In this document: positions 18,734 through 42,300 of the stretch, one piece after another
How positions within the stretch are numbered: the stretch's first letter is position 1
Layout: every line of letters begins with the position of its first letter
Assembly (NCBI GenBank): GCA_963723515.1
Contig: CAVRQT010000003.1
Location: 416,001-480,000 of the forward strand
Direction: 5' to 3'
Length of the DNA stretch: 64,000 nucleotides
DNA from: Vulcanimicrobiota bacterium
GTDB taxonomy: Bacteria; Vulcanimicrobiota; Vulcanimicrobiia; Vulcanimicrobiales; Vulcanimicrobiaceae
Translations under genes and position numbers: made by a program
The notes under the pieces: generated by a model
Database searches by the model: none
What the model was told of the DNA's origin: nothing
The model's input: the letters and a program-made list of their open reading frames with translations, nothing else

Positions 18734-18938
18734 CTGTCACGCTGAGCTTGTCGAAGCGCAGCGATAGTCTTGATAGGCGCGACCGTCCCGGTGTCACATT
18801 GAGCTTGTCGAAATGTGACATGAGCTCTTGTCATGCTTCGACACTTCGTCACGCTCAGTGCAGGCTAAGCTCAGCATGACACTGCGACCTTCGAGTAGCG
18901 CCCATTATCGCTGCGCTTCGACAGGCTCAGCGTGACAG
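18734..18938. repeat. Nested cluster of REP-like palindromes (4 outer units plus 1 inserted unit)
   Basis: 33-bp inverted repeat at 18734-18766 / 18906-18938 with 1 mismatch, enclosing units 18792-18820 and 18829-18881; core TGAGCTTGTCGAA. Confidence 0.9.
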
Positions 18939-30923: not shown

Positions 30924-31025
30924 TGTCACCCTGAGCTTGTCGAAGCGCCACCGGAACGGTGAACACCGAGCTTTAAATCGTGACATTCATGATCGGGGTG
31001 GCCCTTCGTCAAGCTTAGGCTGACA
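30924..31025. repeat. Inverted pair of REP-like palindromes
   Basis: TGTCACCCTGAGCTTGTCGAAGCGCCACC and a degenerate inverse, GGTGGCCCTTCGTCAAGCTTAGGCTGACA. Confidence 0.85.
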
Positions 31026-41285: not shown

Positions 41286-41334
41286 TGTCACCCTGAGCTT
41301 AGCCTGTGCTGAGCGGTGTCGAAGCATCGAAGGG
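41286..41334 (+). repeat. REP-like palindrome with an inserted sub-element
   Basis: TGTCACCCTGAGCTTA[GCCTGTGCTGAGCGGTGTCGAAGCA]TCGAAGGG, between convergent genes. Confidence 0.85.
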
Positions 41335-42144: not shown

Positions 42145-42164
42145 CGGTTCCGCGCCTGTACTGC

Positions 42165-42300
42165 CGTCACCCTGAGTTGAGCACGGCCTGCATTGAGCGC
42201 CGAACAGCCGCCTGCAGCTCGTCGAGCTAGCCTGCAGCGTCCAGTCGAACAGCCTGCAGCGAGCTTGCCGAGCCTAGCCTGCACTGAGCTCGTCGAAGTG
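42165..42300 (+). repeat. REP half followed by five GCCTGCA-headed units
   Basis: CGTCACCCTGAG at 42165; GCCTGCA at 42186, 42210, 42230, 42252 and 42277; only the last unit is intact (GCCTGCACTGAGCTCGTCGAAGTG). Confidence 0.75.

Follow-up and report, generated by a model that had tools for sequence, protein, structure and literature searches.

A unit of 24–25 nt tagged AGCCTG recurs in the loop of a larger hairpin repeat tagged TGTCA, where it is gained as a block, in a fixed polarity, with a bias for certain targets and independently from one nest to the next. We hold it very probable that the unit inserts independently and are less confident that a GIY-YIG nuclease supplies the break. On the process itself our judgement is evenly divided: in the best explanation a non-autonomous hairpin would be copied at a nick in single-stranded or extruded hairpin DNA, on the 5' side of a G, the nick being made by an Ssn-type enzyme and the copies focused by homology within the family. 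The unit behaves like a non-coding, non-autonomous mobile hairpin and, by this behaviour, is among the smallest mobile DNA elements. The analysis covers the window, i.e. the whole stretch of 64,000 nt, the genome that holds it (G000; 2.11 Mb, 88% complete) and, for comparison, a relative (G001) as well as further genomes.

The AGCCTG unit and its composites in the window

An earlier note on this DNA had described two composites in which a small tagged element sits in the loop of a TGTCA-tagged host. Both were found in the sequence; their parts and the neighbouring repeats are as follows.

41286..41300, plus strand: host repeat of locus 1, left half (TGTCA tag, CCC stem, TGAGC, loop TT)
41301..41326, plus strand: inserted AGCCTG-tagged unit of locus 1 (TGC stem, GGTG loop), 25 nt (41301–41325) and a terminal A (41326)
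41327..41334, plus strand: host repeat of locus 1, right half (TCGAA GGG)
18867..18881, minus strand: host of locus 2, left half (TGC stem, loop TT)
18843..18866, minus strand: inserted AGCCTG unit of locus 2 (24 nt exactly; stem CAC), with the host loop G (18842) on its 3' side
18829..18842, minus strand: host loop G and right half of locus 2 (TCGAA GCA TGACA)
18735..18937, no single strand: cluster of four TGTCA host units, the inverted pair 18792+/18881- lying within the pair 18735+/18937-
30924..30947, plus strand: plain, uninserted host unit with loop TTG, for comparison
42276..42300, plus strand: further intact AGCCTG unit, which closes a cluster of decayed GCCTG pieces (~42150–42300)

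The same note had the loop G of the host replaced by an A plus the insert at both loci. We assign the A before GCCTG to the unit, as its first base, and not to the host, since 42 of the 49 CCTG-tagged units of G000 (free copies included) begin with AGCCTG. At locus 2 the G of the host follows the unit (18842), so that the gain is an exact insertion of 24 nt; the replacement is confined to locus 1, where the A at 41326 occupies the place of the G of plain hosts. Locus 1 sits between convergent genes, and the whole composite is absent from the orthologous gap of G001, which is 14 nt long and holds no repeat. The decayed GCCTG cluster at ~42150–42300 comes after a host left half, and G001 has a plain host there. 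In the cluster at 18735–18937 one inverted host pair lies in the spacer of another, so that dimers nest and not only single units.

The unit reads AGCCTG-NNN-TGAGC-loop-TCGAA-NN. Units were sampled without selection for nesting: of 373 pattern matches, 50 were dropped before counting, their inner stem being unpaired, and among the 323 kept the length is 24 nt in 124 and 25 nt in 199. Rfam gave no match anywhere in the 64-kb window, and a search of the literature, including the motif string, returned no description of the AGCCTG unit.

Number and independence of the nests

In G000 the nested pattern is found 30 times, against 0 for a reversed control; 2 of 60 relatives have it once each. The genome-wide count of junctions that the earlier note had proposed gives 6 copies of the exact junction TGAGCTTAGCCTG. 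Half-units of the form tag-NNN-TGAGC-loop-xCGAA-NNN number 125 with a GTCA tag, the loop of which is TTG in 82 and CTG in 16, and 49 with a CCTG tag; in the 151 paired units of this genome the tag is TGTCA in 95 cases and GCCTG in 32. The TGAGC loop holds 24 of the 32 well-formed AGCCTG units, although plain host loops (114–125) account for very few of the genome's 1.26 million G positions.

From the differing host and insert stems of the two loci it had been concluded that they are not duplicates of one composite, and the genome agrees: the 22 complete single nests comprise 15 distinct inserts and 20 distinct host-junction-insert combinations, and the stem of the host is not associated with that of the insert (permutation p=0.56; 20 nests, one tandem array collapsed). 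This independent assortment rejects a single ancestral composite, later duplicated and diverged, to which we leave next to no chance. Such an ancestor would fit the array at C3:373.5–374.4 kb, where four near-identical filled copies accompany one empty sibling, and also the nearest host context of the 20 nests, which is a plain host in 14, a tie in 1 and another nest in 5, for ~3 expected. It is contradicted by the unassociated stems, by double nests and nests in both orientations, by the many unrelated targets and by an exact empty site (see below); a single clade of composites was looked for and not found. Empty and filled siblings even stand side by side at L636. The independent nests, and the empty and filled siblings, thus bear out that a very small unit was inserted again and again, independently, at the same position of the loop.

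Target sites, empty sites and junctions

The nested pattern is present at no fewer than 123 sites in the species-genome collection, in many phyla. Among the matches listed, the 80 titled records include Bacteroidota, several Patescibacteria groups, Nitrospinaceae, Terriglobia, Limnocylindrales, Leptospiraceae, Zixiibacteriota, Latescibacterota, Neomarinimicrobiota, Cloacimonadota and Eremiobacterota. Of the 323 sampled units, 48 lie in the host loop on its top strand. The opposite strand of that loop holds 33, at the 3' edge here too, and 29 directly follow CGAAG, in tandem or in the 3' arm. The remaining 213 are found in other repeats, in unique DNA or in genes. Targeting is thus broader than the earlier note supposed, not being confined to the unit's own family.

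At the non-family sites with full flanks, 26 of 209 lie in a loop closed by a stem of at least 7 pairs (controls: 1–15 at offsets of 18–30 nt, 2.3% with swapped flanks). This signal stems from metagenome and viral sites (19/94 and 10/65 at stem 6), and the non-family sites of relatives display no loop enrichment (1/28 and 0/17). The stem scan replaced an MFE-based loop test because the latter was noisy; it had given enrichment for metagenome units (28/118 vs 82/944) and none for relatives (9/65 vs 56/520; 1/26 vs 26/208). The bases before the unit are also biased: AG precedes 49 of 163 non-family units for 9.2 expected, and GG 30 for 11.7 expected. Taken with the loop sites, this excess indicates a preference of the unit for hairpin loops and for purine-purine|G sites; a lack of target preference, which by the earlier note would have refuted its idea of a site-specific mobile hairpin, is not what we find. 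That copies gather so strongly in the TGTCA loop is a trait of the lineage of G000.

The family nests of G000 are 24 on the top strand and 0 on the bottom strand. The strand preference varies by genome: G107 (L470-L489) has 11 bottom-strand nests and 1 top-strand nest among 15 units. Head-to-tail arrays of units with a period of 24 are seen in L637 (G158) and at G149:C1:1704649-1704743.

One orthologous empty site was found at C3:142672, where G000 has 48 nt more than the orthologous site of G001. The extra sequence is one 24-nt unit placed 5' of a G, with a second unit within the first, and neither duplication nor loss accompanies the insertions. Precise gain is also seen in the clean sibling pairs L340, L482, L526 and L636, and other junctions lose 1–5 bases; in this comparison the "empty" matches of tandem units are self-matches and were set aside. 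For L593 no orthologue was found in the 5 genomes searched, and the alignment of L594 was uninformative. Two genes also contain free units in frame, the first an aminotransferase class III gene (L591 350-380, L592 315-345); relatives have no unit there. The net difference is 21 nt relative to G001 in the first gene, in an uncertain alignment, and 24–27 nt in the second, which we take to resemble PEP carboxykinase. Gains of 24 nt in frame amount to ~8 extra residues in enzymes.

Units could also land almost anywhere, if only insertions into loops spared the host repeat or the gene and filled hosts were then amplified. The frame kept by free units in genes is in line with such a survivor bias, as are the filled hosts copied whole in arrays and at both ends of a nuclease gene, and the loop is dispensable for the nuclease SsnA (PMC11893778). 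We nevertheless consider it improbable: amplifying a few composites would not make host and insert stems assort independently, and the 24 of 32 units of G000 found in host loops also count against it.

The junctions bear on a further possibility, in which no enzyme is dedicated to the unit. Template switching by a polymerase, or gene conversion over short patches from one homologous hairpin to another, would have the position fixed by the shared TGAGC and TCGAA, AGCCTG being the left arm plus loop of a CTG-loop host, captured once. AGCCTG and AGCTTG are indeed identical to the host's own arm-plus-loop text (loop CTG in 16 and TTG in 82 of 125). The letters between the host TGAGC and the unit equal the loop of the local sibling in 1 of 15 pairs and differ from it in the other 14, and TC is over-represented before the unit in G000 (6/13 vs 8/113, p=0.0007). 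If the stem begins with T, the last base of the unit is A in 33 of 39 nests on the top strand, at a position that is G in plain hosts, and it is G in 31 of 33 nests on the bottom strand; in foreign nests the host resumes at AA in 46 of 119, with 3–5 host bases lost. These letter patterns fit either a choice of target among loop variants or donor letters copied by conversion. The top strand common to all 24 family nests of G000, and the absence of the nuclease clade described below from insert-rich genomes, favour conversion as well. It leaves unexplained the exact 24-nt gains in non-homologous DNA, the 213 of 323 non-family sites, the 33 reverse-orientation nests and the purine bias before the site. 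We consider conversion unlikely, although it is the rival we take most seriously.

The loop is a general breakpoint, since TGTCA units themselves restart within the host loop in 11 cases in G000, at a spacing of 5–8 nt. The restarts, often short tandem runs of left halves, are found at C3:819135, 933936, 1019832-1019851, 1020511-1020530, 291581 and 832292.

Candidate enzymes and related repeat systems

The earlier note named HUH/RAYT-like and GIY-YIG-like enzymes as possible movers and proposed to look for a small nuclease or transposase gene flanked by these repeats. A stand-alone gene of the second type was found outside the window:

C3:290985-291284, minus strand: P0001, GIY-YIG gene of 100 aa, ~125 kb before the window

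P0001 matches the Pfam GIY-YIG family with E=2.4e-14, and the Tyr, Gly, Arg, His and Glu columns are invariant. Four host units upstream and four downstream face inward to the gene, one of them doubly nested. In a set of 66 small GIY-YIG proteins from fetched loci, inward-facing host units were found at 36 of 39 genes with the P0001-type motif (both sides in 26, one side in 10), at 4 of 11 of the NP.W type and at 3 of 16 others; the motif classes are our own, L576 and L162 are identical and some of the "others" group with P0001. The NP.W-type proteins, whose motif is presumably typical of cd10448, form a group apart from P0001 in a quick tree (SH-aLRT 87), and the best solved-structure relatives of P0001 are UPF0213 proteins. 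Neither small GIY-YIG protein has a family in NCBIfam. For P0002 the AlphaFold model is weak (pLDDT 62.6), and a fold search found nothing at E<=0.001; no conclusion draws on either. Where G000 has its nuclease gene, G001 has host repeats and unrelated DNA (L179 1445-2092), which suggests an exchange of cargo at this locus.

Filled hosts flank the nuclease genes of L079, L163, L062 and L135. The P0001 clade co-occurs with the insert in family f1 (51/16/11/37, odds ratio 10.7, kin not being independent), but it was not found in several insert-rich genomes. Among these are G107, G162 and G090 (26, 16 and 8 units); in each of them the matches were limited to another small GIY-YIG gene, with no units beside it, and one of UvrC size. 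In the phylum of G175, 12 of 121 genomes carry units (62 in G175, 26 in G262) and the P0001 clade at E<=1e-25 is present in 0 of these 12; G175 does hold a canonical Ssn-type (NP.W-type) gene. The P0001-type nuclease is thus strongly linked to the TGTCA host repeat, which its clade tracks rather than the insert, and its link to the insert is circumstantial. Since insert-rich genomes can be devoid of the clade, a GIY-YIG mover is unproven, in spite of the repeat-flanked gene.

No HUH/RAYT-like mover was found in G000, where Y1_Tnp (PF01797) has 0 matches and DUF559 no match, the genome being 88% complete. The open reading frames between or beside close pairs of units, read by eye in 10 stretches, contain no mobility gene that we recognised, and no gene bracketed by free AGCCTG units was recognised. 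These results weigh against another recombinase or HUH-type transposase acting by precise single-strand transfer as in IS200/IS605, with the GIY-YIG enzyme serving the TGTCA host only, and so do the many imprecise junctions. The precise, duplication-free and polarity-fixed insertion, the head-to-tail arrays of period 24 (G149, L637) and the lack of the P0001 clade in the genomes richest in units would all suit such an enzyme, which we rate a little below conversion.

The explanation that we prefer, copying at a nick, starts from what is shown: the unit is gained as a block, many times over and independently, and enters immediately 5' of a G in a constant polarity, mostly behind purines, with no target bases duplicated. 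Within hairpin loops it favours the 3' edge, both in the TGTCA host, whichever the strand, and in repeats of other kinds. Insertion may take place on single-stranded or extruded hairpin DNA, at a site opened by the nick of a small Ssn-type GIY-YIG single-strand nuclease, in G000 probably the host's own nuclease P0001. Repair synthesis would copy the unit from another copy, and the short homology that family members share, TGAGC to the left and TCGAA to the right, would concentrate the copies at this one loop position in the lineage of G000. Against this explanation count the fold of the unit, which is not stable in ViennaRNA (z=0.79) and by our reading would need G.A pairs, and the 183 of 209 non-family sites that lie outside a strong Watson-Crick hairpin. 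We also know of no loop cut site for any Ssn enzyme, which counts against it too. Further points against it are the insert-rich genomes in which the P0001 clade was not found, the lack of loop enrichment at non-family sites of relatives, the junction letters that differ from sibling loops, the excess of TC and the host bases lost in foreign nests.

A bolder reading is that the unit is a 24-nt hyperparasite that borrows the small GIY-YIG single-strand nucleases of other repeat families and is pasted, hairpin-directed and without a transposase, into the loops of these families and into genes. We put it forward tentatively, and would sooner expect it to fail than to hold. If true, it would define a cross-phylum class of minimal mobile DNA, and a first mobility role for Ssn-like enzymes, including a sister clade of the P0001 type, so far uncharacterised, with its own repeat.

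The closest known kind is that of the cyanobacterial SDR repeats, here riding on an Ssn-like host system; this is a likeness of behaviour and not an established membership. Elhai et al. reportedly described in 2008 eight such small dispersed repeats, SDR1–8, of ~21–27 nt. As far as the portions of the SDR literature available to us go, the AGCCTG unit resembles them in being very small (24–25 nt) and non-coding, in its precise, duplication-free gain at a defined position within another repeat, and in having no known transposase. SDR5, for one, inserts precisely at a defined internal position of HIP1 (PMC4390886). Unlike the SDRs, the unit has no cyanobacterial record among the matches listed (80 titled) and many from other phyla; it also enters hairpin loops on either strand and can be nested within another copy of itself, the two being compared by description only.

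REP/REPIN-RAYT (HUH Y1) and IS200/IS605 systems follow a hairpin-guided single-strand logic without target duplication, in which they resemble the unit. Unlike REP/RAYT, the repeats of G000 have no GTAG tag and the genome no Y1_Tnp match. The unit differs from a MITE by its asymmetric ends and by the absence of duplication at the orthologous empty site.

The host itself recalls the Ssn system (Chenal et al. 2025, PMC11893778): in both, a free-standing GIY-YIG gene (~100 aa) has oriented GTCA-tagged hairpins to either side, their tags turned outward. According to the same paper SsnA cuts single strands 5' of the repeat tag, 5 nt 5' of the tag G (a derived value), and tolerates extensions at the loop position, so that filled hosts could stay functional (PMC11893778). 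Differences are nevertheless clear: 0 of 116 hosts of G000 fit the published degenerate SRM pattern (PMC11893778), and P0001 groups apart from the NP.W-type proteins, its best structural matches being UPF0213. The text examined describes no nested or inserting sub-element for Ssn, and its mobility is merely hypothesised there (PMC11893778).

The CGTC-tagged REPs of Di Nocera et al. 2013 share with the hosts a TGTC tag variant, inverted dimers and intergenic clusters, and are stated to lack a transposase (PMC3733652). Some of their families are reported there within other palindromes (PMC3733652). Their stems are given as 8–9 bp and their loops as 4–5 nt (PMC3733652), whereas the hosts of G000 have an asymmetric conserved core of 11–12 nt between the stems; unlike these REPs as described there, the insert bears a different tag and occurs singly. 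How bacterial repeats of 20–40 nt spread without a transposase can be put to the test with the AGCCTG family: the ends of the unit are exact, sites are known both empty and filled, a rule for targets can be given, and the same genome encodes a candidate nuclease of 100 aa. With its TGAGC/TCGAA repeat, the P0001 clade would also extend the range of specificities among site-specific single-strand nucleases.

Related forms occur in other repeats of G000. A CCCAAG-tagged hairpin form lies in the loop of another GC-rich palindrome family (C2:544544, C3:282221, C3:30543, C4:26547, C4:1189), and units tagged AGCTTG or GGCTTG lie within a longer conserved repeat of ~75 nt (C2:631467, C2:636893, C3:760885, C3:287107). 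A plain TGTCA host is also present in a conserved coding stretch of G001 (L186, G001:C82:914-926) and absent from G000.
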